From assembly GCA_044225365.1 (NCBI GenBank), contig JBGAIQ010000002.1, positions 32,001-96,000 on the forward strand: DNA of 64,000 nucleotides. Reading direction: 5' to 3'. The number at the start of each line of letters is the position of its first letter. The stretch's first letter is position 1. A program made the position numbers and the translations under genes. The notes under the pieces are model-generated. The model was given only the letters and a program-made list of their open reading frames with translations, did no database searches and was not told the DNA's origin. Below are positions 2,835 through 17,400 of the stretch, piece after piece. The DNA is from Planctomycetota bacterium. Lineage in GTDB: Bacteria; Planctomycetota; B15-G4; JADJEK01.

Positions 2835-2883
2835 TGCGAATAAAAATTCACGATAGCGCGCAGCGAAAGCATGATTATTCTTT
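2835..2883 (+). promoter_or_regulatory. ARG boxes (ArgR operators) upstream of argR
   Basis: AT-rich island in GC-rich DNA; tgCGAATAAAAATTCAcg (2835-2852) matches the TGNATWWWWATNCA-type palindrome; weaker aaaGCATGATTATTCttt (2866-2883). Confidence 0.75.
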
Positions 2884-2888
2884 CTCCG

Positions 2889-3332
2889 ATGAGTCGAACA
2901 CAGGACCGTCGACGCACGATCGCGGCGTTGCTCGCCGAGCGGGACATCCGCAGCCAGAAGGAGCTGCGGTCCGCGCTCGCGCGCCGTGGGCATCGAGCTT
3001 CGCAGCCCGTGTTGTCGCGCGATCTGCGCGCGATGAAGGTTGCGAAGAGCAACGGCATCTACCGCGTGTTCGATCAAGAGCGGGTCACTCCGCTCGAAGG
3101 TCTGAAGGCATTGCTGCGCGGAGTGGAGCCGGCGAACCACTTCGTCATCGTGTTCTGCGAGCCGGGCGCGGGTTCGGCCGTCGCGCGTGCGATCGACCAG
3201 TCGGAGACCGAGGGTCTCGTCGGCACGATCGCGGGCGACGATGCGGTGCTCGTTGCGTTGGACTCACCTTCGGCCGCGCGCGACGTGAGGCGTCGGGTCG
3301 GCGATCTCATCACTACGGCGGTTGGAGACTGA
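2889..3332 (+). CDS. argR: Arginine repressor
   Basis: IRSQKEL...SQPVLSRDL HTH region and GTIAGDD arginine-binding motif; first gene of the arg operon. Confidence 0.95.
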   Translation: MSRTQDRRRTIAALLAERDIRSQKELRSALARRGHRASQPVLSRDLRAMKVAKSNGIYRVFDQERVTPLEGLKALLRGVEPANHFVIVFCEPGAGSAVARAIDQSETEGLVGTIAGDDAVLVALDSPSAARDVRRRVGDLITTAVGD

Positions 3333-3333
3333 C

Positions 3334-4551
3334 ATGCGCGTGCTCCTTGGATACTCCGGTGGACTCGATACCTCGTTCCTCGTCGCGTGGCTCACGCGCG
3401 AGCAGAATGCGAGCGTGACGGCGCTCGCCGTGGATTGCGGCGGCTTCACCGTCGACGAGCGGAGCGAGATGGGAGAGCGCGCGATGGCGCTCGGCGCGAA
3501 GGAATTCCGCCTCGTCGACGCGCGCGCCGAGATGTTCGATCGCATGCTGCGATTCCTCGTCGCGGCGAACGTGAAGCGCGGCGGCGTCTACCCGCTCTGC
3601 GTCGGCGCCGAGCGTGGCTTGCAGGCCGAAGTCCTCGCCCGCGTCGCCCTCGAGGAAGGATTCGATGCGGTCGCCCACGGCTGCACCGCGGCGGGCAACG
3701 ACCAGGTGCGGTTCGAGGCAGCCCTTGGGACGATCGCGCCACAGCTCAAGGTCGTTGCACCGGTGCGCGACCTCGGTCTCGAGCGAGGGTTCGAACGCGA
3801 TTACCTGACGAAGGTCGGATTCCCACCGGCGGAATCGCGCGCCCGCTATTCCGTGAACCAGGGCCTGTGGGGTCTCACGATCGGCGGCGGCGAGATGGCG
3901 ACGAGCAGCGATCCTCTGCCCGAATCGGCGTGGGTCTGGACGAAGGGCGCGAACGAGCCGAATCGACTCGCGGCTTCTCTCGCGCTGAAGTTGTCGTTCC
4001 ACGACGGGATCCCCGTCGCCCTCGATGGCAAGGCCCTCGACAGCGTCACCCTCGTGGAGACGTTGAATCGGATCGGCGGCGAGTACGGCGTCGGCCGCGG
4101 CTACCACCTCGGCGACACCGTCCTCGGGATCAAGGGGCGCATCGCGTTCGAAGCGCCGGCCGCCGAAGTGATCCTGGCGGCGCACCGCGAACTCGAGAAG
4201 CTCGTGCTCACGGAGGAGCAGCGCTTCTGGAAGGACCATCTCGGCGAGGTGTACGGTCGGCGTCTGCATCAGGGCTTGTTCCACGACCCGTTCCAGCGCG
4301 ATCTCGAAGCGTTCTTCCTGTCGAGTCAATCGCGGGTGACGGGTGATGTGGTCGTGCGTCTCGCGCACGGCAAGGCGATCGTCGAGGGTACGACCTCGCC
4401 GTTCTCGCTGATGGCCGCGTCGGACGCCCGCTACGGCGAGCGTGCGGCCAAGGAGTCGGATCCGCGATCGGCCGTCGGTCTCGCGAGGTTGCTCGCGGAG
4501 CCGGGTCGATTGCATCGCCGGGCCGGGATGGCGAAGGGAGCCTCGCAATGA
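3334..4551 (+). CDS. argG: Argininosuccinate synthase
   Basis: LGYSGGLDTS PP-loop, AHGCTAAGNDQVRF, GIKGRIAFEAPAA. Confidence 0.96.
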   Translation: MRVLLGYSGGLDTSFLVAWLTREQNASVTALAVDCGGFTVDERSEMGERAMALGAKEFRLVDARAEMFDRMLRFLVAANVKRGGVYPLCVGAERGLQAEVLARVALEEGFDAVAHGCTAAGNDQVRFEAALGTIAPQLKVVAPVRDLGLERGFERDYLTKVGFPPAESRARYSVNQGLWGLTIGGGEMATSSDPLPESAWVWTKGANEPNRLAASLALKLSFHDGIPVALDGKALDSVTLVETLNRIGGEYGVGRGYHLGDTVLGIKGRIAFEAPAAEVILAAHRELEKLVLTEEQRFWKDHLGEVYGRRLHQGLFHDPFQRDLEAFFLSSQSRVTGDVVVRLAHGKAIVEGTTSPFSLMAASDARYGERAAKESDPRSAVGLARLLAEPGRLHRRAGMAKGASQ

Positions 4552-5612
4552 GAAGGGTCGAGATCGACAAGATCGGGTCGGTGACGCTGCGTCTCCTCCT
4601 CGAGAAGAACGCGGTTCTCGGCGACGACATCCCCGCCGTCGAAGGCACGGTCGTCGCGGGCCGCGTGAAGAACGCGAAGACGACCTACAACACGCTCGAG
4701 GACGTCCACGGCCGCATGGTGACGCTCTACCCGGGCGACATCATCGCGGGCGCGCTCGGCCATCGCGACGCGCTCTATGGCTACTCCGGTCGCATTCCGT
4801 TGCACGTGCGACCGGGCGACGAACTGAACATCCTCAATCTCGGCGGTGTGATCGGTGAAGGCGCGACGGCAACGCCCGGCATCGGCGAGCCGTTTCGCAT
4901 CGAGGTCCTCGGCGCCGTGCTCGAGTTCCCGTACGTGGGGACGCGCGTCGGCGTCCCCGCCAACGTAGCGCGCGGAGCGCTTCCGCCGCTCGACTTGCCG
5001 CCGACCGGCGAGATGCCGCCCGTGATCGCTCTCGTCGGTACGTGCATGGACGCGGGCAAGACGACGGCGGCGAGCGTCATCATCGGTGAACTGGCGCGGG
5101 CGGGCAAACGCGTCGCCGCAGGCAAGCTCACCGGTGTGTCGCTGCGCAAGGACGTCCTTTCGATGAAGGACTGCGGCGCCGAACCCGCGCTGTTGTTCAC
5201 CGATTTCGGCATCGTGACGACGAGCGACACGACGGCGGCCGCCACCGGCAAATCGCTCCTCGCGCACCTCGTCGAATCGGAGCCCGACATCATCGTCCTC
5301 GAACTTGGCGACGGCCTGCTCGGCACGTATGGCGTGCGTGCCCTTCTCGAGGACATCGCGTTCCGCTCGTCGCTGACCGCGGTCGCCCTCTGCGCTCAGG
5401 ACCCGGTCGGCGCGTGGGGCGGTCAGCAGATCCTGCGCGATCGCTACGGTCTCGAGGTGGCGGTGGTGTGCGGCCGCGTGACCGACACTCCGACGGGACT
5501 TCGATTCTGTCGCGAGAAGCTCGAGGTCTCGGCCTGGAACGCGTTGCATGACGGGCCGCAACTCGTCGGCGCGCTCGAAGCGGCGATCGCCCGTAAGGCG
5601 GCGAATCGATGA
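4548..5612 (+). CDS. DUF1611/DgcN-like P-loop protein inside the arg operon; function unassigned
   Basis: Walker A-like VGTCMDAGKTT, then AAGKLTG, FTDFG, IVLELGDGLLG; ATGA overlaps with argG and argC. Confidence 0.8.
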   Translation: MRRVEIDKIGSVTLRLLLEKNAVLGDDIPAVEGTVVAGRVKNAKTTYNTLEDVHGRMVTLYPGDIIAGALGHRDALYGYSGRIPLHVRPGDELNILNLGGVIGEGATATPGIGEPFRIEVLGAVLEFPYVGTRVGVPANVARGALPPLDLPPTGEMPPVIALVGTCMDAGKTTAASVIIGELARAGKRVAAGKLTGVSLRKDVLSMKDCGAEPALLFTDFGIVTTSDTTAAATGKSLLAHLVESEPDIIVLELGDGLLGTYGVRALLEDIAFRSSLTAVALCAQDPVGAWGGQQILRDRYGLEVAVVCGRVTDTPTGLRFCREKLEVSAWNALHDGPQLVGALEAAIARKAANR

Positions 5613-6703
5613 CGAACGAAGACCCGCGCGGCGCCTCGGTCCCGCTCGTGCTGTTCGGCGCGAGCGGATTGCTCGCAGGCGAACTGCTTCGCCTGCTCGA
5701 GAATCATCCGTCGTTGCGTCTCGCCGTCGCCAGCACGCGCGAGGGCGGCAGTCTCGCCGATGCGCAGCCGCATCTCTCTTTCGCTCCTGTATCGATTCCG
5801 ATCGAGGCGGCGATGGAGCAGTGCGTCGCACTCGCGGCGGAGGGTCGCGTGGCGATCGCGTTCGCACTTCCGCACGGCGAATCGGCGACGTTGTGGAAGA
5901 GTCTGCGATCTCGTCTCGGTTCGAACGCGACGAACGCGGTCGTCGTCGATCTCGGTGCCGATTACCGCATTTCGGACCTTTCGAAGTACTCGAAGGTCTA
6001 CGGCGCGCCGCATCCCGACGCCGCCGAAGTCGCGAACTTCGTCTACGGCCTTCCCGAGTTCCACCGCGCGGCATTGCGCGAGTCCACACGCGCTGCGGCG
6101 GGCGGCTGTTTCGCGACGGCGATGCAGCTCGCGATCGTTCCCGCGTTCGCTTCGGGTCTCGCCGATTCGTCGCGCCCGATCCTCGTGAGCGGGATCACCG
6201 GATCCTCGGGTTCGGGAAACAAGCCCGCGCCGAACACGCATCACCCGCATCGTGCGGGAAACCTCTGGGCCTACTCGCTCACCGGGCATCGTCACGAAGC
6301 AGAGCTCGAACAGGCGCTCGCGAGCGCCCCGATCGACGGCGTACCGTCGATCCACTTCGTCCCGCATTCGGGACCCTTCGTGCGGGGTATCCACCTCACG
6401 GCGTTCGTGGCATTGCGCGCAGGGGCGACGGGAGCCACGGCTCGCGACGCATACCGCGCGCGCTTCGCGAACGAGCCCTTCGTGACCGTGCTCGAGAAGG
6501 GCACGCCCGACCTGCGTCGAATCGTGGGTTCGAATCGCGCGTGCCTCGCGCTCGAATCGCGCGGCGACGTGCTCACGGTCTGCCTCACGCTCGACAACAT
6601 CACCAAGGGCGGGGCGGGTCAGGCGCTGCAGTGTCTCAATCTCATGCTCGGCGTCGAAGAGACGGCCGGGTTGCCGCGAACCGGTCTGGGAGTCTCGGGA
6701 TGA
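5609..6703 (+). CDS. argC: N-acyl-gamma-glutamyl-phosphate reductase
   Basis: FGASGLLAGELLRLL, ALPHG, DLGADYR, YGLPE, GCFAT, GSSGSG, DNITKGGAGQA. Confidence 0.95.
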   Translation: MTNEDPRGASVPLVLFGASGLLAGELLRLLENHPSLRLAVASTREGGSLADAQPHLSFAPVSIPIEAAMEQCVALAAEGRVAIAFALPHGESATLWKSLRSRLGSNATNAVVVDLGADYRISDLSKYSKVYGAPHPDAAEVANFVYGLPEFHRAALRESTRAAAGGCFATAMQLAIVPAFASGLADSSRPILVSGITGSSGSGNKPAPNTHHPHRAGNLWAYSLTGHRHEAELEQALASAPIDGVPSIHFVPHSGPFVRGIHLTAFVALRAGATGATARDAYRARFANEPFVTVLEKGTPDLRRIVGSNRACLALESRGDVLTVCLTLDNITKGGAGQALQCLNLMLGVEETAGLPRTGLGVSG

Positions 6704-7857
6704 GTCTTGCTGAATGGAATGCGTATTCGCGTCTGCCTCTCGATGTCGTTCGAGCCGAGGGATCCGAGCTGATCCTGCGCGACGGCCGTCGCGTCCTCGA
6801 TCTCTACGGAGGGCACTGCGTCCTCTCTCTCGGCGCCGGCAATTCGCTGCTCGCCGACACGCTGGCCGCGCAGTGGAAGGATCTCGGGTTCGTGACGAAT
6901 CTGCTCGATCACGCCCCGCGTCATCACTTCCTCGCCGCATTCGAGAAGAACCTGCCCGCAGGCGACTGGCGCGTGTTCTGTTCGAACAGCGGGGCCGAGG
7001 CCAACGAGAACGCGCTGAAGTGCGCGCTCTCGGCGACGGGTCGTGAGCGCGTCGTCGCGTTCTCCGGCGCCTTCCACGGACGTACCGCGGCCGCGAACGC
7101 CGTGACCGACACCACGAAGAAGGCCACGCCGCGAACGCCGTTCGACGTCGTGCGCATTCCGTGGGGCGATATCGAGAAGTCGCGCGCAGCGATCGACTCC
7201 ACGGTCGCCGCGGTGATCCTGGAGCCGATTCAATCGCTCGCGGGCGTCGTCGATCCTCCCGAAGGTTTCTTGCAGGCTCTCCGGCAAGCGTGCGACGCCG
7301 CCGGCGCCGCGCTCGTCTTCGACGAGGTCCAGACCGGCAATGGGCGGCTAGGCACGCCGTGGGCGAGCCAGTACTTCCACGTGACTCCGGATCTGTTCAC
7401 GACGGCGAAGGGCGCCGCGGGCGGCATCCCGATCGGGCTCACCGTCGCGAAGACGGCATGGGCCGACAAGGTTCCCGGCGCGCTCTTCGGCTCGACGTTC
7501 GGCGGCGGCCCGATGCCGCTCGCGCTCGCGACGATCGTCTCCGAAGCGATCGGCACCGAGGGTTTCCTCGCCAACGTCCAGGCCGCGTCGCGTGCGTTCG
7601 CGGCGGCGGGGTCGCATTATCCGGTGAAGCGAGTTCGCGGCGCGGGACTGCTCCTCGGCCTCGAACTCGAAGCGGGTTTCGAGGCGAAGAAGATCCGCGA
7701 TCTCCTGCTCGCGCACGACGTCCTCGTCGGCACCTGCGACGACCCGAAGGTCCTGCGACTCTGCCCCTCGCTGACGATCGCTCCCTCGGAAGCGCGACGA
7801 CTGCGTCACGCGCTCGAAGCCGTCGCGGCGACGATCGGAACGAGCGCCGCGCGATGA
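6700..7857 (+). CDS. argD: N-acylornithine aminotransferase (class III PLP)
   Basis: NSGAEANENALK, AFHGRT, ILEPIQ, FDEVQTGNGR, TTAKG, STFGG. Confidence 0.93.
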   Translation: MSLAEWNAYSRLPLDVVRAEGSELILRDGRRVLDLYGGHCVLSLGAGNSLLADTLAAQWKDLGFVTNLLDHAPRHHFLAAFEKNLPAGDWRVFCSNSGAEANENALKCALSATGRERVVAFSGAFHGRTAAANAVTDTTKKATPRTPFDVVRIPWGDIEKSRAAIDSTVAAVILEPIQSLAGVVDPPEGFLQALRQACDAAGAALVFDEVQTGNGRLGTPWASQYFHVTPDLFTTAKGAAGGIPIGLTVAKTAWADKVPGALFGSTFGGGPMPLALATIVSEAIGTEGFLANVQAASRAFAAAGSHYPVKRVRGAGLLLGLELEAGFEAKKIRDLLLAHDVLVGTCDDPKVLRLCPSLTIAPSEARRLRHALEAVAATIGTSAAR

Positions 7858-8945
7858 ACGGACTCTACGACCTCGCCGAACTCGATCCGCTCCTCGTCGA
7901 TCAACTCGCGGCACGCGCTCTCGCATTGCACCGCGGAGAGTTGCCGAGACGGTTCCCCGGCCGCTCGCTCGGCCTGCTCTTCTTCGATCCGTCCTTGCGC
8001 ACGCAGGCGTCGTTCCAGCGCGCCGCGGGCCTCCTCGATCTTCATCTCGTGCACCTCTCCGGAACGATCTGGGGACTCGAGACCGAGGAGGGCGCGGTCA
8101 TGGACAGCGACAAAGCGGAGCACGTGAAGGAAGCCGCGCGAGTGCTCGGACGCTACGTCGACGTGCTCGGCGTGCGGGCGTTCGCGAAGGGCAAGGACCG
8201 CGCGAAGGACCTCGCCGATCCGCTGCTTCGGGGATTTTCGAAGTACGCGGGAGTGCCCGTGATCAATCTCGAGAGCGCGCGGTTCCATCCGTGCCAGGCG
8301 CTCGCGGATCGCGTCACCCTCGATCAGTTCTCGATCCCCGTGCGATCGAAGTTCGTGCTCACGTGGGCTTGGCATCCGAAGGCGCTCCCGGTCGCCGTTC
8401 CGCAATCGACGTTGCTCATGGCGGCGCAGCGTGGAATGGACGTCGTGGTCCTGCGTCCCGAGGGATACGACCTGGAAGAGGACGTCGTCGCGCACGCCAC
8501 GCGTCTCGCGCGCGAGCGAGGCGGCCGTGTCGAGATCACGTCCGACCGGTCGGCGGTCGCGGGCGCGACGGCCATCTACGCGAAGTCGTGGGGCAGCCTG
8601 CTCGATTACGGCGATCCCGCTGCCGAGGCCGCGCGGCGGGCGAATCTGCGGCATTGGCGCGTCGAAGCCGGGACCTTCGCGACTGCGAAGGACGCCGTGT
8701 TCATGCATTGCCTGCCGGTGCGACGCAACGTCGTCGTGACGGACGAAGTGATCGATTCCGAGCGCAGCGTCGTGATCGAGCAGGCCGAGAATCGGCTGTG
8801 GGCGCAGACGGCGATCCTCGAGTCGATCCTCGGTGCGACCGCACCGCGCCGCGCATTCCGTTCCAGTATTCGCGCCCGGGAAGCCGGGAGTTCCAACGCC
8901 GGTCGAGTCGGCCGCGAGTTCGGTATCGAGGAGGGTTCGTCGTGA
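7854..8945 (+). CDS. argF: N-acetyl/N-succinylornithine carbamoyltransferase (ArgF')
   Basis: FFDPSLRT instead of STRT; HPCQALAD; FMHCLPVRRN; proline-rich loop TWAWHPKALPVAVP typical of AOTCase/SOTCase. Confidence 0.92.
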   Translation: MNGLYDLAELDPLLVDQLAARALALHRGELPRRFPGRSLGLLFFDPSLRTQASFQRAAGLLDLHLVHLSGTIWGLETEEGAVMDSDKAEHVKEAARVLGRYVDVLGVRAFAKGKDRAKDLADPLLRGFSKYAGVPVINLESARFHPCQALADRVTLDQFSIPVRSKFVLTWAWHPKALPVAVPQSTLLMAAQRGMDVVVLRPEGYDLEEDVVAHATRLARERGGRVEITSDRSAVAGATAIYAKSWGSLLDYGDPAAEAARRANLRHWRVEAGTFATAKDAVFMHCLPVRRNVVVTDEVIDSERSVVIEQAENRLWAQTAILESILGATAPRRAFRSSIRAREAGSSNAGRVGREFGIEEGSS

Positions 8946-9904
8946 AAGATCTGATTCGCGCCATTCCATACATCCGTATGCATCGGGATCGGGTGATCGT
9001 GATCAAGGCGGGCGGAGGCACGCTCCAGAAGGCCGCGCTCCAGCGTCAGTTCGCGCGCCAGGTCGCAGCGATCCACGCGCTCGGCGCGAAAGTGGTTGTC
9101 GTTCATGGCGGTGGTCCGCAGATCGACAAGGTGCAGCGCATGCTCGGCGAGGAGCCGCAGATGGTGGACGGGCGACGCATCACGTCGGAGACTGCGTTGC
9201 GCGCGCTCAAGATGTCGACGGCGGGCGAACTGAACGCCGACCTCGCCGCCGCCCTCCTCGAACAGGGCACGCCCGCGATCGGCATCACGGCGGGAAGCTG
9301 CGGTGCGCTCATCGCGCGTCGGCGCGGCCCGACGAAGACGAGCCAGGGCATCGTCGATTTCGGCCAGGTCGGAGACATCGCAACGGGTCTCGGGGATCCG
9401 ACCGCGATCGCGGCGCTGATCGCGGTGGGTCACGTGCCGGTGATCGCTCCGATCGCAGGCGACGGCGCGGGCGGGTATCTCAACGTCAACGCGGATCTCG
9501 CGGCGGCATCACTCGCGACGACGCTCAAGGCTTCGAAGCTCGTCTTCGTGACGGGAGTTCCCGGCATCTTGCGCGCTGCGCTCGATCCGGCGTCTCTCGT
9601 CTCGGCCTTGAGCCTCGACGAACTCGACGAACTCGACGCGACGGGCGTTTATTCGGGCGGCATGAAGGTGAAGGCGCAGGCGATCCGCAATGCGCTGCAC
9701 GGCGGCGTCGAACGCGTCCACGTCGTCTCCGGCCACGATCCCGAAGCCCTGCTCGCCGAGCTCTACACGACGCACGGAAGCGGCACGCTCGTCACCCGCG
9801 AGCCCGAACGTGCGCCCGAGGATGCGGCTGCGAGCACCCCGCCCGCGGCCAGCGTGACGCAGAAGAGCCAGGACAACGGGCTCTCCGCCGCTGCGATGGG
9901 CTGA
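8942..9904 (+). CDS. argB: N-acylglutamate kinase (no fused GNAT domain)
   Basis: VIKAGG, VVHGGGPQI, GRRIT, LNVNADLAA, GGMKVK; GTG start overlaps the argF' stop. Confidence 0.94.
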   Translation: MKDLIRAIPYIRMHRDRVIVIKAGGGTLQKAALQRQFARQVAAIHALGAKVVVVHGGGPQIDKVQRMLGEEPQMVDGRRITSETALRALKMSTAGELNADLAAALLEQGTPAIGITAGSCGALIARRRGPTKTSQGIVDFGQVGDIATGLGDPTAIAALIAVGHVPVIAPIAGDGAGGYLNVNADLAAASLATTLKASKLVFVTGVPGILRAALDPASLVSALSLDELDELDATGVYSGGMKVKAQAIRNALHGGVERVHVVSGHDPEALLAELYTTHGSGTLVTREPERAPEDAAASTPPAASVTQKSQDNGLSAAAMG

Positions 9905-9906
9905 CG

Positions 9907-10986
9907 ATGGAGCCCGAGGCACTGCTCTCAAGGATGGTGGCGACGCCGAGTCCGTCGGGCGACGAGGGCGCGCTCGCGGACTTCGTCATCGCGTTCGCAG
10001 GCGAGACCGGGCTGTCCACGCAGCGCATCGGCAATTCGGTCGTGGCGCGCATCGGAAGCGTGGGCGCCAACGCGCCGCGCCTGTGGTTGCTCTCGCATCT
10101 CGATACGGTGCCCGTCGGCAATGGCTGGTCCCACGATCCCCTGAAGGGTGAGTGGGAAGGCGACCGGCTGTACGGGCGCGGGGCGAACGACGCCAAGGTC
10201 TGTGGCGCGTCGATGCTCTCCGCGGCGGCGGCGCTCGTGCCCGAATTCTCGAGCGGTCGTATTCGTGGCGTGCTCGAAGTGGTGCTGACCGCGTGCGAGG
10301 AGACGACGAACGCCGGGATGGGCGAGGTGCTCGCCGCTCTCGGCCCGCCGGACGCGTGCATCTGCGGCGAGCCGACGAGCCTCGAAGTCGTCTGCGCGCA
10401 GGGCGGTCTCTCGGTGCTCGCCGCGAAATGGCGCGGGATCTCGTGCCACGCAGCGCATGCTGCGACCGTCGACAACGTGAACGCACTCTTGGTCGCGGCG
10501 CGCGATCTCGCCGAACTGCCGAGCGTGCTCCACGTCGGTCACGATCATCCGCTGCTCGGTCGCACTTCGGTGGTGACGACGCAGCTCAAGGCGGGCGAAC
10601 GACACAACGTGATCCCGGATCTCGCCGAGGCGGTGTTCGACGCGCGCGTCGCGCCTGGAACGAGTGCGGACGAGATCCGCGCCGAACTCGAGCGGCGGCT
10701 GCCGAACGCCGAGGTGACGATCCGCTCGAAACGACTCACAGCGGTGGAGACGGCGATCGATCATCCCGTCGTTCGCGCGGCGCTCCTCGCCGCCAAGAAG
10801 CCGCGCGCGATTGCATCACGGACGCTCTCGGACATGGCGTTCCTGATGGGCGTCCCGGCCGTGAAGTGCGGGCCGGGCGACACGTCGCGGTCGCACACTC
10901 CCAACGAATACGTGACGCGCGCCGAGCTCGACGCCGGCGTCCAGTTCTATCGCGCCGCCGTTCCTTCGATCCTCGCAGTCCTGTAG
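9907..10986 (+). CDS. argE: M20 family N-acyl-ornithine/citrulline deacylase
   Basis: SHLDTV, LYGRGANDAK, ACEE, GEPT, GPGDTSRSHTPNEYV; operon context. Confidence 0.88.
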   Translation: MEPEALLSRMVATPSPSGDEGALADFVIAFAGETGLSTQRIGNSVVARIGSVGANAPRLWLLSHLDTVPVGNGWSHDPLKGEWEGDRLYGRGANDAKVCGASMLSAAAALVPEFSSGRIRGVLEVVLTACEETTNAGMGEVLAALGPPDACICGEPTSLEVVCAQGGLSVLAAKWRGISCHAAHAATVDNVNALLVAARDLAELPSVLHVGHDHPLLGRTSVVTTQLKAGERHNVIPDLAEAVFDARVAPGTSADEIRAELERRLPNAEVTIRSKRLTAVETAIDHPVVRAALLAAKKPRAIASRTLSDMAFLMGVPAVKCGPGDTSRSHTPNEYVTRAELDAGVQFYRAAVPSILAVL

Positions 10987-10998
10987 GGAAGCCAAGTG

Positions 10999-12219
10999 AT
11001 GAGCGATTCCGAATCCGCGAACGAGAACAGTGCGCACGCGCGACCCGTGTGGGACCGTGGCGACGCGATCGATGCCGGCATGCTCGCCTTCACCGTCGGC
11101 GACGACTGGCTGATGGACCGAAGGCTCGTGAAGCACGACATCCGTGGATCGCTCGCGCACGTGAAGGGCCTGGAGCGCGTGGGACTCGTCAGCGCGGACG
11201 ACGCCGCCGCGATCACGCAGGGACTGAACGACCTGCTCGACCTTCATCACAAGGGTGAGTTCGACGTCACGGCGCGGGACGAGGACGTCCATTCGGCCGT
11301 CGAGAACGCACTCGTAGTGCGAATCGGCGATCCGGGCAAACGCCTCCACACCGCACGCAGTCGCAACGAGCAGGTGGCCGTCGACGTTCGGCTCTTCCTG
11401 CGCGAGGCGATCGGTGACGTGCGTGCGGCGCTCGATCGCGCGGTTCAGGCCTGTCTCGATCGCGCGCTCGCCTACGGCGATCTGCCCCTTCCGGGCTACA
11501 CGCACCTTCGCCGCGCGATGCCCTCGACGCTCGGGGTCTGGCTGCTCGCGCACGCCACGGCATTGCGCGCCGACATGTCGGAACTCGACGTGGCGGCGAA
11601 GCGGATCAGCAAGTGCCCGCTCGGGAGCGGGGCCGGATACGGCCTGCCGGTCGAACTCGATCGCGAGTTCGTTGCGAAGGAGCTCGGGTTCGACGCGCCC
11701 GAGGAGCCCGTGACGCTGGTGCAGCACTCGCGTGGGCGGGCCGAGCTCTCGTACCTGAACGCACTCGAGGCGATCGCACTCGACGTGATCAAGCTCGCGA
11801 CCGATCTCTGGCTCTTCACGAGCGAGGAGTTCTCCTTCGCCAAGTTGCCGGTCGCTCTCACGACCGGATCGTCGCTCATGCCGCAGAAGCGGAATCCCGA
11901 CCTCATCGAGCTGCTGCGCGCGAATGCGCGACAGGTGCTCGCCGAGCGCGACGCCGTCCGCGAGGTCGTGCGCGATTTGCCCTCCGGCTATCACCGCGAC
12001 TTCCAGTTGTTGAAGGGGCCGCTCTTTCGCGCGCACGATCGAATGCTCGCGATGCTGCCGATGGTCGACAAGCTCGTCCGCGGGATCGAGTTCGACGCCG
12101 GCGCACTGCGTGCGGCTTGCGCCGACCCAAAGCTCAATGCGACCGCACGCGCGCTCGAGAAAGCCAAGCAGGGCGTCCCGTTCCGCGATGCCTATCGCGA
12201 GGAGAGTCGCGGCGGCTGA
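10999..12219 (+). CDS. argH: Argininosuccinate lyase
   Basis: EDVHS, LHTARSRNEQV, PGYTHL, TGSSLMPQKRNPD, LPSGYHRD. Confidence 0.96.
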   Translation: MSDSESANENSAHARPVWDRGDAIDAGMLAFTVGDDWLMDRRLVKHDIRGSLAHVKGLERVGLVSADDAAAITQGLNDLLDLHHKGEFDVTARDEDVHSAVENALVVRIGDPGKRLHTARSRNEQVAVDVRLFLREAIGDVRAALDRAVQACLDRALAYGDLPLPGYTHLRRAMPSTLGVWLLAHATALRADMSELDVAAKRISKCPLGSGAGYGLPVELDREFVAKELGFDAPEEPVTLVQHSRGRAELSYLNALEAIALDVIKLATDLWLFTSEEFSFAKLPVALTTGSSLMPQKRNPDLIELLRANARQVLAERDAVREVVRDLPSGYHRDFQLLKGPLFRAHDRMLAMLPMVDKLVRGIEFDAGALRAACADPKLNATARALEKAKQGVPFRDAYREESRGG

Positions 12220-12244: not shown

Positions 12245-14827
12245 TCAATGCAGCAGTTGGATCCCGTTCGTCGCGGCGTAGCCGAGCGTCGCGCCCGGGT
12301 CGACGACGAAGCCCTGCATTGCGAGGTTCAGTCCGACCGCCGACGCGGGATAGACGGTCGGCAGCGAGAACGAACCGTTGCCGGCGCCGCCGCCCGCGAG
12401 CGGGAGCAAGAGGCTCTGCGGCAACACGGGGAAGAGCAGCAGACGACATCCGCCGCCGATCGGCAGGTTCGCGGGCGATGTTCCGAGCAGGACGACCATC
12501 GTCGCGCCGCCGAGTCCGAACTTCGCGCCGAGCTTGACCGTTTCGCCCGGATCGGGACACCCCGTGAACGTGAGGACCGGTGAGAAGCCGCCCGAGCCTG
12601 GGCAGCCCGAACCATAGGCCGCGGCCGCTGAAACGCACTTGTCCTGGATGAGGATCGCGAAGTCCTCCACGAATCCGAGCGAATGGCCGACGACGGCATC
12701 GGTTCGTCCGTCACCGTTCAGGTCCGCGAGATCGGAGCCGTAGAGGATCCCATTGCTGCTCGGGTTGGTGTCCCACCCGAAGTTCACGAGCGCGTTGCTT
12801 TCCGCGGGATCGAAGCCGTTCGCCGTGCCGGGAACGATCGTCCCGCCGACCGCGACGTCCGTGAAGCCGTCGGCGTCGAGATCGCCGAAGTGGACTGCGG
12901 CGGGCTGAATGACGAAGCTCCCGATTCCCGAATTCTCCGTGACGACGGAGAAACCGTTCGCGCCGTAGCTCAACTGGAAGATCCGCAGATTGCTGAGGAG
13001 GCAGAGATCCATGTCGCCGTCGTTGTCGAAGTCGCGCGCCGTACTGAATTGGAGGTCGGGCGCGAGGACGATCGGGGTGACGATCGAACTCGGCCCCGGC
13101 GAGAAGGTACCGGCGCCATTTCCGAGATACGGGTACAGGAGCACATGGGTCGATTGTGCGACACTGTTCGTCGAGACGACGAAGTCGATGAAGCCGTCGA
13201 GATCGAAGTCCGCGGCTGCGAGTGAGCCAAGACCGGTCGACTGCACGACGGCGGTGGACGTCGCGTAGGGATTCGGGCCCGGAGAAGCCGTGCACAGATT
13301 GACGTCGAAAGCCGTCAACGCGAACAGATCGTCGTCGCCGTCGTTGTCGATGTCGGCGGGCACCGGGGGAGCCTTCAAGAACAAGAAGTTCGTGGTGGTC
13401 GGAGGCGGTACGAAAGCTCCGTTCCCCACACCCAGGTGCGTAGCGATCGAACCGAGGAAGGACTGAGTACCCGCGACGACGAGATCGACGTTGCCGTCGT
13501 TGTTCGAGTTCACCGGGACGAGCCAAGGGAACAATTCGGACGGTGAGAGGACGGTGGGCCCGAACGAACCGTCGCCGGCGCCCTTTTGGAACCGGATCGA
13601 TCCGCCGTCGTTCACGAGGAGGTCGACCTTCGCATCTCCGTCGACATCGTGCAGGAGCGGCGCCGAGTTCACCGTGGTGGGAACGCCTGTCGTGGGCGGC
13701 AGTACGAAAGTGCCCGGGCTCTGGCTGAAGAGTCCGTAGACGCCGAGCGCACCGACGACGACGAGATCGATCAGGCCGTTGCCATCGAGATGCATCGCCG
13801 CCGCGGTCCACATCCCTCCGAGGTCGACGTTCGATGCGATCCCGAAGAAACCATGCTTGTTGCCGTAGCGAAGCTGCGGCGGCGCCCCCAAGATCAAGGT
13901 GAGGAGATCCGGGTTCTGATCGGAGTTGAAGTCGGCGACGACGCACTGGGTTGGACTGTTCGACGTGTTGATGTAGTTGATCGACTGACTCGAGGTGAAG
14001 CCGTTCACGGTGGCGAGCAGGATCCTCGTCGTTCCCGGGCTGCCGTTGTCCTCGTTGACCACGAGATCGCTTCGGCCATCGTGATCGAGGTCCGCCACCA
14101 GAATGAACTCGCCGGGTGTGGCGAAGGCCGGCAGCGGCGACGCAAAGACTCCGCCGCCCAGACCACGCATCGTGAAGACACCATGCGCCAGTCCGAACGC
14201 GGAGATCGCGACGTCTGCCGTTCCATCGCCATCGAAGTCGCCGACTCCGAGAACCGCATCGCCGATCGGCGCGGCCTGCGGCGGGGAAGCCACGAGGCCG
14301 TTCGCATTCAAGAGCACCTGGATCGAGGCTTGGAGTCCGACGAGGTCGTAGGTGTAGACCAGGATGTCGGCCTTGCCGTCCTGGTCGAAGTCGCCGCTCA
14401 CGAGACGCAACGGATCGATGCTGGGATACGAGGTCGGAGCGCCGAACGTCCCGTCCCCGAGATTCGCATACACGAGTACCGCGGAGGCGACGCCGTGAGC
14501 CGACGCCGCGATGTCGAGGTCGCCGTCGTTGTCGAAGTCACCGATCGCATCTTCGATCGGGCCGACGCCGATTCCGCCGGCGGACGGAGTGAAGCTACCG
14601 AATCCTCGATTCAGGAGGACCTGTCCGCGCGAGAGCAGATCGGGGATTCCGTCGCCGTCGAAATCCCCCGCGAGTGTGTTGCTCGCCTGACTCGGCCCTT
14701 CGAAGAACGAGAACTGCGGAGTCGATTCGAATCGAAACTTGGGAGGGGCGGCATGGGAATCCACGGCAGGAAGGAGCCCGACAAGAGCCATCGCGGACGA
14801 CCAAGGAGAAGCATGCTTCAACGTCAT
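12245..14827 (-). CDS. Secreted FG-GAP/VCBS repeat protein, paralog 2
   Basis: Signal peptide; many GDFDxDGxxD Ca-binding repeats; C-terminal YGSGCPGSGG...YAATNGIQLLH domain. Confidence 0.88.
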   Translation of the reverse strand: MTLKHASPWSSAMALVGLLPAVDSHAAPPKFRFESTPQFSFFEGPSQASNTLAGDFDGDGIPDLLSRGQVLLNRGFGSFTPSAGGIGVGPIEDAIGDFDNDGDLDIAASAHGVASAVLVYANLGDGTFGAPTSYPSIDPLRLVSGDFDQDGKADILVYTYDLVGLQASIQVLLNANGLVASPPQAAPIGDAVLGVGDFDGDGTADVAISAFGLAHGVFTMRGLGGGVFASPLPAFATPGEFILVADLDHDGRSDLVVNEDNGSPGTTRILLATVNGFTSSQSINYINTSNSPTQCVVADFNSDQNPDLLTLILGAPPQLRYGNKHGFFGIASNVDLGGMWTAAAMHLDGNGLIDLVVVGALGVYGLFSQSPGTFVLPPTTGVPTTVNSAPLLHDVDGDAKVDLLVNDGGSIRFQKGAGDGSFGPTVLSPSELFPWLVPVNSNNDGNVDLVVAGTQSFLGSIATHLGVGNGAFVPPPTTTNFLFLKAPPVPADIDNDGDDDLFALTAFDVNLCTASPGPNPYATSTAVVQSTGLGSLAAADFDLDGFIDFVVSTNSVAQSTHVLLYPYLGNGAGTFSPGPSSIVTPIVLAPDLQFSTARDFDNDGDMDLCLLSNLRIFQLSYGANGFSVVTENSGIGSFVIQPAAVHFGDLDADGFTDVAVGGTIVPGTANGFDPAESNALVNFGWDTNPSSNGILYGSDLADLNGDGRTDAVVGHSLGFVEDFAILIQDKCVSAAAAYGSGCPGSGGFSPVLTFTGCPDPGETVKLGAKFGLGGATMVVLLGTSPANLPIGGGCRLLLFPVLPQSLLLPLAGGGAGNGSFSLPTVYPASAVGLNLAMQGFVVDPGATLGYAATNGIQLLH

Positions 14828-17400
14828 CCGCCCCATCGACCTCGACCAAATCGGAGAAGACCCACCACGAGTTCGCAATCAGTGAAGGAGCTGGATCCCG
14901 TTCGTCGCGGCGTAGCCGAGTGTCGCGCCCGGGTCGACGACGAAGCCCTGCATCGCGAGGTTCAGTCCGACCGCCGACGCGGGATAGACGGTCGGCAGCG
15001 AGAACGAGCCGTTGCCGGCGCCGCCGCCCGCGAGCGGGAGCAAGAGGCTCTGCGGCAACACGGGGAAGAGCAGCAGACGACATCCGCCGCCGAGTGGCAG
15101 GTTGGCGGGTGACGTTCCGAGCAGGACGACCATCGTCGCGCCGCCGAGGCCGAACTTCGCGCCGAGTTGGACCGCGGCGCCCGGATCGGGGCAGCCGGTA
15201 AAGGTGAGTGCCGGTACGAATCCTCCCGACCCTGGACAGCCCGAGCCGTACGCGGTCGCGGTCGACACGCAGGTGTCCTGGAGGAGGATCGCGAAATCCT
15301 GTTGATTGCTGAGCGGCCGTCCCACGACGGCGTCGGTGCGCCCGTCGCCGTTCAGGTCCGCGAGGTCGGAGCCGTAGAACAGTCCGTTGCCGCTTGGATT
15401 GGTGTCCGAACCGAAGTTGACGAGCACGTTGCTCGCAGACGGATCGAACCCATTCGCGGTTCCGGGAACGATCGTCCCGCCGATGACGAGGTCCGTCAAA
15501 CCGTCGGTATCGAGATCTCCGAACTCCACCGAAACCGGCGGCGTGAGAAAGCTGCCGATCCCGGGATTCTGCGTAATGACGGAGAATCCACCGGTCCCGT
15601 AGCTCAACTGGAAGATGGTGAGGTTGCTGAGGACGCAGAGGTCCATGTCGCCATCGCCGTCGAAGTCGCGCGCCGTACTGAACTGGAGGTCGGGCGCCAG
15701 GACGAGCGGAGTGACGACCGAACTCGGCCCCTGCGTGAACGCGCCGGTGCCATTTCCGAAGAAAGGAACCGCGTTCACGTTGGGCGATACGGAGAAGCTG
15801 TCGGTGGTGGCGACGAAGTCGAGGAATCCATCCAGATCGAAGTCGGCCGGCGCGATCGAGCCGTAGGAAGTCGAGGGCGAGAGCGTGACCGAGTTCGCGT
15901 AGGGATTCGGGCCCGGAGCTGCTGTGAAGAGAGCGAGGAAGGGACCCGCCAATCCGAGCAGGTCGTCGTCACCGTCGTCGTCGACGTCGGCGGCGACCGG
16001 AGCCGTCTTGAACGCCAGGGTACTCGTGCTCGTCGGGGCGGCAGCGAAGCTTCCACTTCCGTTGCCGAGGAGCGAAGTGACCGTTCCGATGAAGAGGTTG
16101 TTCCCCACCGCGACGAGATCGAGGTTCGCATCGTTGTTCGAATGGACGGGCACGAGCCAGGGACGCGCCGCTGCGGCCGAGAGCACCGCCGGGCCAAACG
16201 TGCCATTACCCACGCCCTTGCGGAATTGAATCGATCCGTTGGCGTTCACGAGGAAGTCCGCCTTGGAGTCGCCATCGACATCGCGGAGCAATGGGCGCGA
16301 ACTGACGTTCGGACTCAGCCCCGTCGTCGGCGGCAGAACGAACGTACCCGGAGTCTTCCCGCGGAGGCCGTACACGCCGAGCGGACCCTGCACGACGAGA
16401 TCGATGAGGGCATCGCCATCGAGGTTCATCGCGATAGCGGTCCACATCCCTCCGAGGTCGACGTTCGTGGCTCCGCCGAAGAAACCATGTTTGTTACCGA
16501 GTCGAAGTTGCGATGGCGCACCCAGGATCAGAGTGAGGAGATCCACGTTCTGATCGGAATCGAAATCGGCGAGCACGCACTGCGTCGGACTGTTGGACGT
16601 GTTGATGTAGTTGATCGACTGGCTCGAGTTGAAACCGTTCACGGTCGCGAGCAGGATCCTCGTCGTGCCCGAGTTTCCGTTGTCGTCGTTGATCACGAGA
16701 TCGCTGAGGCCATCGTGGTCGAGATCCGCGACCAGGATGAATTCGCCCGGTACGGCGAACGCCGGCAACGCCTGCGCGAAGACTCCGCCGCCCAGGCCGC
16801 GCATCGTGAAGACTCCATGCGCCTGTCCGAATGCGGAGATCGCGACGTCGCTCGTTCCATCACCATCGAAGTCGCCCACTCCGAGCACCGCGTCGCCGAT
16901 CGGCGCGGCCTGCGGCGGGGAAGCCACGAGGCCGTTCGCATTCAAGAGCACCTGGACGGACGCGCTGAGTCCGACGAGGTCGTAGTCGTAGACCAAGATG
17001 TCGGCCTTGCCGTCCTGATCGAAGTCGCCGCTGACGAGATGCATTGGATCGATGCTGGGATACGAGGTCGGAGCGCCAAACGTTCCGTTCCCGAGATTCG
17101 CATACACGAGGACTGCGGACGCGACGCCGTGAGCCGAGGCCGCGATGTCCAGGTCGCCATCGTTGTCGAAGTCCCCGATCGCGTCTTCGATCGGACCGAC
17201 GCCGATTCCACCTGCGGACGGAGAGAAACTTCCGAATCCTCGATTCAGGAGGACCTGCCCGCGTGTCAGCAGATCTTGGATCCCGTCGCCGTCGAAGTCT
17301 CCCGCGAGGGTATTGCTCGCCGGACTCGGCCCTTGGAAGAACGAAAACTGAGGAGTGGACTCGAATCGAAACCTGGGAGGGGCGGCTTCCGAGCTCGTCG
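12245..17400. repeat. Tandem gene duplication with ~2.6 kb period
   Basis: Near-identical DNA, e.g. 12258-12530 vs 14892-15165, and the 5' parts of both genes. Confidence 0.9.

Follow-up and report, generated by a model that had tools for sequence, protein, structure and literature searches.

A predicted N-succinylglutamate-forming P-loop protein encoded between argG and argC in Planctomycetota and several other phyla

We analyzed a stretch of 64,000 nucleotides from a Planctomycetota bacterium (GenBank assembly GCA_044225365.1, contig JBGAIQ010000002.1, positions 32,001 to 96,000 of the forward strand), hereafter referred to as the window, which contains an arginine operon with an additional gene between argG and argC. 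This gene, termed X, is an open reading frame (ORF) at 4548-5612 (+) with an ATG start that encodes 354 amino acids (P0001). On the basis of its genomic context, fold, and conserved residues, X is predicted to be an N-succinyl-L-glutamate-forming enzyme, and we consider it probable that it makes this compound by one mechanism or another. Our full proposal, to which we assign a rough probability of 0.4, is that X would be an ATP- or GTP-dependent succinate:L-glutamate ligase that acts via succinyl-phosphate, re-uses the succinate released by the desuccinylase, combines a dethiobiotin synthetase (DTBS)-like P-loop with an N-terminal beta fold unseen in solved structures, and takes the place of any acyl-coenzyme A (acyl-CoA) transferase in Planctomycetota, Woeseiaceae, and several other phyla. 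For the reaction type taken separately, namely, a DTBS-like succinate:L-glutamate ligase that depends on Mg-ATP or another nucleoside triphosphate (NTP), the conserved residues suggest a chance that falls a little short of even.

Arginine gene clusters containing X

Scans of the window with Pfam and NCBIfam models gave the operon order argR-argG-X-argC-argD-argF'-argB-argE-argH, which encodes ArgR and all of the glutamate-to-arginine steps but the first. This agrees with an earlier interpretation made from the DNA letters alone (the sequence-only reading), whose description of the locus, that is, the ORF, the ATGA overlaps on both of its sides, and a Walker A-like motif, was also borne out. 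The stop codon of argG (TGA, 4549-4551) lies on the start codon of X (ATG, 4548-4550) in the sequence gcaATGAgaagg at 4548, and at the junction of X and argC (cgATGAcg) the ATGA at 5609-5612 joins the stop of the former with the start of the latter. A direct read of bases 5037-5066 provides the extended Walker A motif GTCMDAGKTT (G164-T173).

Neither argA nor argJ was found within the window. Genome-wide (94.3% completeness, 103 contigs), there were no matches to ArgJ (PF01960) or to the NAT domain (PF04768) of the bifunctional N-acetylglutamate synthase/kinase, and the model of the classical ArgA (TIGR01890) matched nothing but the ArgB of the operon itself, over its kinase part (positions 2-280). 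The sequence-only reading had held that a canonical argA or argJ elsewhere in the genome, together with homologs not tied to arg operons, would speak against its proposal; neither gene was encountered in these searches. The GNAT family (PF00583) had 19 matches genome-wide; none of these is located in the arg cluster, and none scored above the cut-off of the N-acetylglutamate synthase models in NCBIfam, with best scores of 28-31 bits against cut-offs of 154-280. The absence of carAB had also been noted; the operon indeed contains no carB, but CarB is encoded elsewhere in the genome, on contig C103 (1512 bits). X is therefore not needed for carbamoyl phosphate, and a role of X in its provision was rejected.

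X was detected in 27 of 41 genomes, namely, that of the window and 40 relatives; because of the kinship among these relatives, the figures serve as plain counts and do not amount to a test. An ArgC match adjoins X in 26 of the 27 positive genomes, the 27th X being located at a contig end, and no arg-type ArgC or arg cluster devoid of X was found among the 41 genomes. The inspection of 20 loci around X in the relatives, down to 39% identity, revealed the order argG-X-argC-argD-(argF')-argB-(argE-argH) in 19 cases, whereas the single non-arg locus carries a second paralog with 33% identity. A scan of species-representative genomes yielded at least 600 matches. In the best 80 of these, X is in an arg cluster without exception (80/80) and directly upstream of argC in 78. 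These 80 loci stem from metagenome-assembled genomes of Planctomycetota, many Woeseiaceae, other Gammaproteobacteria, Lentisalinibacter salinarum, Fimbriimonadia, Myxococcaceae, Acidobacteriota and Holophagaceae, Eisenbacteria, and Rhodospirillaceae. When both sets are combined (100 loci), X is found in an arg cluster in 99, the adjacent pairs X>argC and argG>X occur 97 and 95 times, respectively, and the clusters leave no room for a further gene, save one argE>argH gap of 758 bases. At the level of gene context, these comparative data strongly back the claim of the sequence-only reading that X would fill the vacant first slot of the operon.

Paralogs of X with 33-36% identity were also found outside arg clusters, at L023 (G026:C40) 7910-9076 (-), G157:C1:506672-507484, and G157:C2:812871-813644. 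The neighbors of the G026:C40 paralog, which are BNR-repeat, beta-helix, and Topo VI-B genes, are uninformative. Among the 14 X-negative genomes, 12 have no ArgC above the cut-off, and the other 2 contain clusters of another kind with ArgC/ArgB/ArgD/ArgE-like genes; in X-negative G034 an ArgC-type cluster lies beside genes for LysW and LysX, which were confirmed for this genome only. A GNAT gene would be expected in the arg operons of relatives without X, but these 14 genomes offered no such operon for comparison. Similarly, ArgJ was above the cut-off, and weakly so, in only 2 of the 41 genomes, which left nothing to contrast with X. The phylogenetic profiling suggested by the sequence-only reading placed the homologs in arg operons, with some paralogs outside.

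A second ArgC/ArgB/ArgD/ArgE-like cluster is present in four relatives (L149 [G034:C8:114000-133999] 6498-11840, L150, L151, and L152). In G034 (92% complete), which is without an X-type arg operon, LysX (ATP-grasp) and LysW (zinc ribbon) mark a LysW-carrier lysine/ornithine pathway. Seven relatives that are at least 90% complete (G002, G007, G015, G018, G019, G021, and G023) have neither X nor an ArgC above the cut-off; in these, the synthesis of arginine from glutamate may be absent altogether or may rely on something unrecognised.

Nucleotide site, domains, and relatives of X

X is a real, conserved gene. Its family is large, with more than 1866 homologs in a set of 5.8 billion proteins and 1360 cluster representatives at E ≤ 0.001, and consists of proteins of about 350 amino acids that are all labelled hypothetical. 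Conservation was counted over 158 distinct sequences of the family. In the P-loop, K171 is present in 158/158 and is followed by Thr in 156 and Ser in 2 (position 172). Furthermore, K193 and E252 are both invariant (158/158), and position 202 is occupied by Asp in 156 and by Glu in 2 sequences. In the N-terminal domain, R73 is conserved in 157 and E51 in 154 of the 158 sequences.

The alignments made with hhalign and hmmsearch place K171/T172, K193, D202, and E252 of X opposite the GKT, the lysine of the K-P motif, the aspartate, and the glutamate of EGxGG in BioD, where Thr follows GK in 29 of 30 sequences. We take these residues to be equivalent to K15/T16, K37, D54, and E115 of DTBS, which bind Mg-ATP and the carbamate. 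By these alignments, the family carries a complete predicted DTBS-type nucleotide and Mg site. In the reactions of DTBS, CTP synthase, and formyl-tetrahydrofolate (formyl-THF) synthetase, phosphorylation activates a carboxyl-type group, to which an amine is then linked. BioD and related C-N ligases (CTP synthase, CobB/CobQ, and formyl-THF synthetase) have in common with X the motif G-T-x4-G-K-T, a lysine after strand 2, the aspartate, and an E-G-x-G-like glutamate. They differ from X in that X scores below the cut-off for AAA_26, has an extra N-terminal domain of 150 residues, and is found in an arginine rather than a biotin context. Against AAA_26 (PF13500), X itself gave no match, and 6 of 59 family members matched at E ≤ 0.01 (best, 1.8e-4). 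Because the DTBS-type ATP and Mg residues are present in 158/158 sequences and are not present in DUF1611, an ATP-dependent ligase would be favored over a succinyl-CoA transferase, and the ATP-dependent amide ligase that the sequence-only reading had put forward as one of two options appears to fit the conserved catalytic residues of X.

Sequence searches with X against Pfam, NCBIfam, and the sequences of the PDB provided sub-threshold P-loop matches only, with a weak match to MobB (E 0.003) and none in NCBIfam or the PDB. The profile of the 59 members matched PDB sequences only in the P-loop segment (DTBS, FtsY, and MobB). The sub-threshold Pfam matches among these members were to MobB (28), CbiA (20), DUF1611 (13), and AAA_26 (6). 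An AlphaFold2 model of X that was based on 59 diverse homologs has a predicted local distance difference test score (pLDDT) of 96.9 and consists of two domains, an all-beta N-terminal domain from residue 1 to about 145-150 (window 4548-4997) and an alpha/beta P-loop domain from about 155 to 354 (window 5010-5609). The latter has a SIMIBI-class fold according to the structure aligner VIA, with which Foldseek agrees, and is DTBS-like by VIA and hhalign. The top structures in VIA were the DUF1611 proteins 2obn (Z 16.7) and 2g0t (Z 16.6) and ApbC (Z 16.2), followed by DTBS (Z 16.0, 15.9, and 15.7; for the first of these, root-mean-square deviation [rmsd] 2.8 with 180 aligned residues), DgcN 7xrj (Z 15.7; rmsd 3.0, 185 aligned), CTP synthase (Z 14.6), and formyl-THF synthetase (Z 14.4).

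The N-terminal domain, which contains the conserved E51 and R73, was also modeled alone, with a pLDDT of 95.6. Its best VIA match had a Z of 3.1, none of 48,161 chains reached a Z of 5, and Foldseek returned nothing at E ≤ 0.001; residues 1-150 likewise had no match in Pfam at E ≤ 10. As modeled, this domain is thus without a clear match among solved structures by either aligner, which falls short of proving a new fold.

The sequence-only reading had assigned X by eye to the DUF1611/DgcN family. The resemblance of the P-loop was confirmed, whereas the membership was not. X scored 12.6-12.7 bits against PF07755, for which the gathering cut-off is 25, and did not reach E ≤ 0.01, in contrast to 13 of the 59 members (best, 1.3e-5). 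The Rossmann-like domain DUF1611_N (PF17396) is not present in X, whose residues 1-150 are all-beta in the model. We built a DUF1611 alignment from 29 genomic sequences and a BioD alignment from 30 sequences. In the former, GK is followed by M (17), R (7), K (1), or T (1), with no motif match in 3 sequences; the P-loop of X has GKT in place of the GKM or GKR of DUF1611. Comparison of the X family with hhalign gave a probability of 92.9% with DUF1611 (E 3.7e-7, 227 columns) and of 95.2% with BioD (E 2.8e-8, 173 columns), so that X is at least as near to BioD; in the alignment with DUF1611, gaps are opposite K193 and D202. The comparison with DgcN and DUF1611 that had been proposed for X hence returned a remote match, which in the structural search was equalled by DTBS and ApbC. 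By these sequence criteria X is not a member of DUF1611/DgcN, although the P-loop domains have the fold and a remote homology in common; it forms a family of its own within this fold class, at about the same distance from DUF1611 and DTBS.

DgcN (PDB 7xrj, EC 2.3.1.312) resembles X in its length of about 340 amino acids, its two domains, and the fold of its C-terminal P-loop domain, and it N-acylates glutamate. However, its N-terminal domain is the Rossmann-like DUF1611_N, to which the all-beta domain of X is unrelated, its P-loop GTDCSVGKM is without the Walker Thr, and equivalents of K193 and D202 were not seen in the hhalign alignment. A genuine DUF1611 protein is encoded elsewhere in the genome, on contig C63 at about 97164-99393 (L037:901-3130), with 251-253 bits to PF07755. 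It contains DUF1611_N and DUF1611_C and matches 7xrj with an E value of 4.6e-121, and the next gene belongs to the enolase superfamily (MR_MLE). The C63 pair, which is unlinked to the arg operon, looks like DgcN-DgcA, which converts D-glutamate to N-acetyl-L-glutamate.

Acyl group, reaction, and alternative explanations

The acyl group of the pathway can be approached through ArgF', a knotted acyl-ornithine carbamoyltransferase (window ~7854-8945, +; NF003384, 368.7 bits). According to the review PMC4581275, Glu92, Asn185, and Lys302 of the Xanthomonas campestris N-acetylornithine carbamoyltransferase (AOTCase) set this enzyme apart from N-succinylornithine carbamoyltransferase (SOTCase), in which these positions are occupied by A/S/P/V/Q, P, and V/I/E, respectively. 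In the alignment to AOTCase chains, E92, N185, and K302 correspond to A88, P179, and V294 of the window ArgF', an N-succinylornithine-type signature. Among 74 ArgF' proteins linked to X homologs, Glu was never observed at position 92 (0/74), Pro was always observed at position 185 (74/74), and the combination A-P-V was present in 63. The best-scoring PDB chain for ArgF', 3l02, has Ala where other chains have Glu, Ser, or Val, and by count along the alignment this Ala is at the E92 position. From these residues, the pathway is thus predicted to proceed via succinylated intermediates, like that of Bacteroidetes (PMC7311316 and PMC9026213). The sequence-only reading had left the product as N-acetyl- or N-succinyl-L-glutamate; because the linked ArgF' bears the N-succinylornithine signature, the latter is predicted and the former is not.

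In our proposal, X would catalyze the first committed step, the attachment of a succinyl group to the alpha-amino group of L-glutamate to form N-succinyl-L-glutamate, which would then pass through ArgB, ArgC, ArgD, the SOTCase-type ArgF', the ArgE-type desuccinylase, ArgG, and ArgH. The C-terminal P-loop domain would phosphorylate the carboxylate of succinate to an acyl-phosphate, which would be attacked by the amine of glutamate under release of ADP and phosphate, whereas the N-terminal beta domain, with R73 and E51, would supply substrate binding. The net reaction would be succinate + ATP + L-Glu -> N-succinyl-L-Glu + ADP + Pi. Whereas gene anatomy, operon coupling, synteny across phyla, the SOTCase signature of the linked ArgF', the fold, and the conserved residues were observed, we infer for X which reaction it catalyzes, from which donor the acyl group comes, and that ATP is consumed.

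Several points weigh against this proposal. The function predicted for the family is drawn from context, fold, and residue conservation, and residues of an intact NTPase site could be used for some other NTP-dependent function. In the structural comparison, the top structures are within 1 Z unit, so that the modeled fold does not discriminate an acyl-CoA transferase resembling DgcN from a ligase resembling DTBS. DgcN, the only characterized relative that acts on glutamate, is named an acetyltransferase, and in the part of their article that concerns such a synthase, Price et al. name their candidate a synthase by analogy with D-glutamate acetyltransferase (PMC13759103). The first step could in fact be carried out by one of the 19 generic GNATs, and the genome is 94% complete; the paralogs outside arg clusters mean that the wider family has at least one other function.

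The points that concern DgcN lead to the alternative that X is a DgcN-like succinyl-CoA:L-glutamate N-succinyltransferase, in which the P-loop would hold the phosphates of CoA without NTP hydrolysis. It would share with the ligase the genomic context, the gap in the pathway, and the SOTCase evidence. Furthermore, it is in line with the remote homology of the C-terminal domain to DUF1611 (hhalign 92.9%, E 3.7e-7, 227 columns), the DUF1611 structures and DgcN 7xrj among the top VIA matches (Z 16.7, 16.6, and 15.7), the sub-threshold PF07755 matches in 13/59 members, the DgcN analogy on which Price et al. based their prediction, and the Bacteroidetes first-step enzyme, a GNAT, a family that mostly uses acyl-CoA. 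We nevertheless regard it as unlikely, albeit as a serious rival of the ligase. The Walker Thr/Ser, K193, D202 (D/E), and E252 are found in 158/158 sequences, and the first three are replaced or missing in DUF1611/DgcN; such a strict conservation of Mg-NTP ligands is unexpected for a site that accommodates only CoA. In addition, X has no DUF1611_N and is at least as near to BioD as to DUF1611.

The GNATs of the genome would become relevant if X were instead an accessory NTPase of the arginine pathway that serves as a chaperone, helps in assembly or channelling, or regulates ArgC or ArgB, with the first step carried out by an unrecognised GNAT or other protein encoded elsewhere. SIMIBI accessory NTPases (HypB, UreG, ApbC, MeaB, and MinD) are indeed among the structural matches, the 19 GNATs have no assigned substrate, the weak matches to MobB (28/59) and CbiA (20/59) are the most frequent ones in Pfam, and X adjoins argC in 97 pairs over 100 loci. 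This explanation would, however, leave the first step without a gene in all 99 arg-cluster loci, in which the other steps are clustered, and no GNAT reached the cut-off of an N-acetylglutamate synthase model. X also has the DTBS-type substrate lysine and an EGxG-like motif instead of NKxD or a deviant Walker A, and a large conserved extra domain with a conserved Arg and Glu fits the binding of a small molecule better. An accessory role consequently has a low probability in our view. We give even less credit to the formation of N-acetyl-L-glutamate and acetylated intermediates as in Xanthomonas, which we judge to be highly improbable. The NCBIfam model matched by ArgF' is named 'N-acetylornithine carbamoyltransferase' (NF003384), the closest solved chains are entries of the X. 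campestris AOTCase, and DgcN is an acetyltransferase. Against this, all three discriminating residues of the window ArgF' are SOTCase-type (A, P, and V), Glu is found at position 92 in 0/74 linked proteins, and 3l02, the best-scoring chain, has Ala at what is, by alignment count, the E92 position.

According to the section of a 2015 review on N-acetylglutamate synthase that touches on this route (PMC4490483), the gene for the succinylation of glutamate was unknown at that time. Price et al. 2026 (PLoS Genet, 12 Nov; PMC13759103, GapMind 2026) predicted an arg-cluster synthase in Steroidobacter, which, as stated in the relevant passage, was not experimentally confirmed. Their candidate, ACG33_RS14135 (A0A127FCT3), is described there as a very distant homolog of D-glutamate acetyltransferase, from a host without ArgA and with succinylated intermediates; for this candidate, the passages of the main text that concern it offer no mechanism, domain analysis, or distribution. 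As judged from this description, the X family is likely the family of ACG33_RS14135. Homologs with about 50% identity to X form part of the arg clusters in Woeseiaceae and in further Gammaproteobacteria, and Steroidobacter was not among the best 80 of the at least 600 X loci. In comparison with the treatment of ACG33_RS14135, the X family is here traced to Planctomycetota and several phyla, set apart from DUF1611, and found to have DTBS-type ATP-site residues. A literature search on DUF1611, DgcN, the enzyme names, and N-acetylglutamate synthase in Planctomycetes retrieved no treatment of the X family besides that of Price et al. The sequence-only reading had called the synthase new; an equivalent gene was apparently predicted by these authors, whereas the ATP-ligase signature, the unmatched N-terminal domain, and the breadth of the family over phyla appear to be new.

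Another enzyme for the same step is ArgA2 (BT3761-type), a GNAT-family N-succinylglutamate synthase of Bacteroidetes for which fitness data provide support in the sections of PMC7311316 and PMC9026213 devoted to it. ArgA2 and X have the same predicted product and are found in the same kind of operon with a SOTCase-type ArgF', but ArgA2 is a GNAT, whereas X is a P-loop protein without similarity to GNATs. X would be a non-orthologous replacement. In the LysW carrier pathway, the ATP-grasp ligases LysX and ArgX protect the amino group of aminoadipate or glutamate in an ATP-dependent manner. They are a precedent for an ATP-driven protecting step, and LysW-LysX-LysY-LysZ-type clusters are present in some relatives; they differ from X in their ATP-grasp fold and protein carrier, since X has a P-loop fold and would presumably use an acyl group of small size.

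When metabolism is reconstructed from genomes, the glutamate-protecting enzyme that opens arginine synthesis is repeatedly missing, and for the first step of the succinyl pathway there is genetic support only for the GNAT of Bacteroidetes. If our prediction is correct, this gap would be closed for many uncultured Planctomycetota, marine Woeseiaceae, Armatimonadota, Acidobacteriota, and others, and predictions of auxotrophy for these groups would change. An ATP-dependent ligase would, in addition, represent a new class of reaction in a textbook pathway and provide a function for a large family of hypothetical proteins with a domain of unknown fold. X is a small soluble protein, and there is one cultured carrier among the matches, L. 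salinarum, whose X ortholog (X77) is at L143:8001-9014.

Other genes of the window and further observations

The remaining genes of the operon are all on the forward strand. The arginine repressor gene argR (2871-3332; Pfam Arg_repressor and Arg_repressor_C) is followed by argG (3322-4551), for which argininosuccinate synthase is indicated by TIGR00032 with 294.7 bits, above the cut-off. Downstream of X are argC (5609-6703; N-acyl-gamma-glutamyl-phosphate reductase, TIGR01850, 287.7 bits, above the cut-off), an argD-type gene for a class III aminotransferase (6700-7857; Pfam Aminotran_3, E 7e-74), argF', and argB (~8942-9904), whose product is an acyl-glutamate kinase without an acyltransferase domain (Pfam AA_kinase only). 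The operon is completed by an argE-type gene for an M20 deacylase (~9901-10986, with an uncertain start at 9901 or 9907; Peptidase_M20 and M20_dimer, all ArgE/DapE matches in NCBIfam being below the cut-off) and by argH (10996-12219), which encodes argininosuccinate lyase (TIGR00838, 303 bits, above the cut-off).

Translational coupling is found nearly throughout window 3322-9904. The argR/argG overlap has 11 bases, and overlaps of 4 bases are present at argG/X, X/argC, argC/argD, argD/argF', argF'/argB, and, judging from the ORF coordinates, probably at argB/argE. Upstream of argR are genes for an AraC-family regulator (441-1565, -) and a 432-amino acid ORF with a DUF446 (PF04287) segment (1425-2723, +), whereas an FG-GAP repeat protein of 877 amino acids is encoded downstream of argH (12245-14878, -).

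In 44 loci of Gammaproteobacteria and Woeseiaceae (within L085-L147), argB is directly followed by argH, and the cluster contains no argE-type deacylase; these organisms must have their desuccinylase gene at another locus or use a desuccinylase of a different kind.

Fusions of X with neighboring enzymes were also considered. P0166 (687 amino acids) turned out on inspection to be out-of-frame junk, and the records of X+ArgC (721 amino acids), ArgG+X (765 amino acids), and a 1430-amino acid form are single ones that were discarded as probable run-on calls of overlapping genes. P0178 (626 amino acids), from a metagenome, reads continuously through an X-like protein, a linker of about 45 residues, and a complete amino-acid-kinase (ArgB-like) domain. 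This one record, which was not used as evidence, may represent a genuine fusion of X with ArgB or result from a run-on in sequencing.

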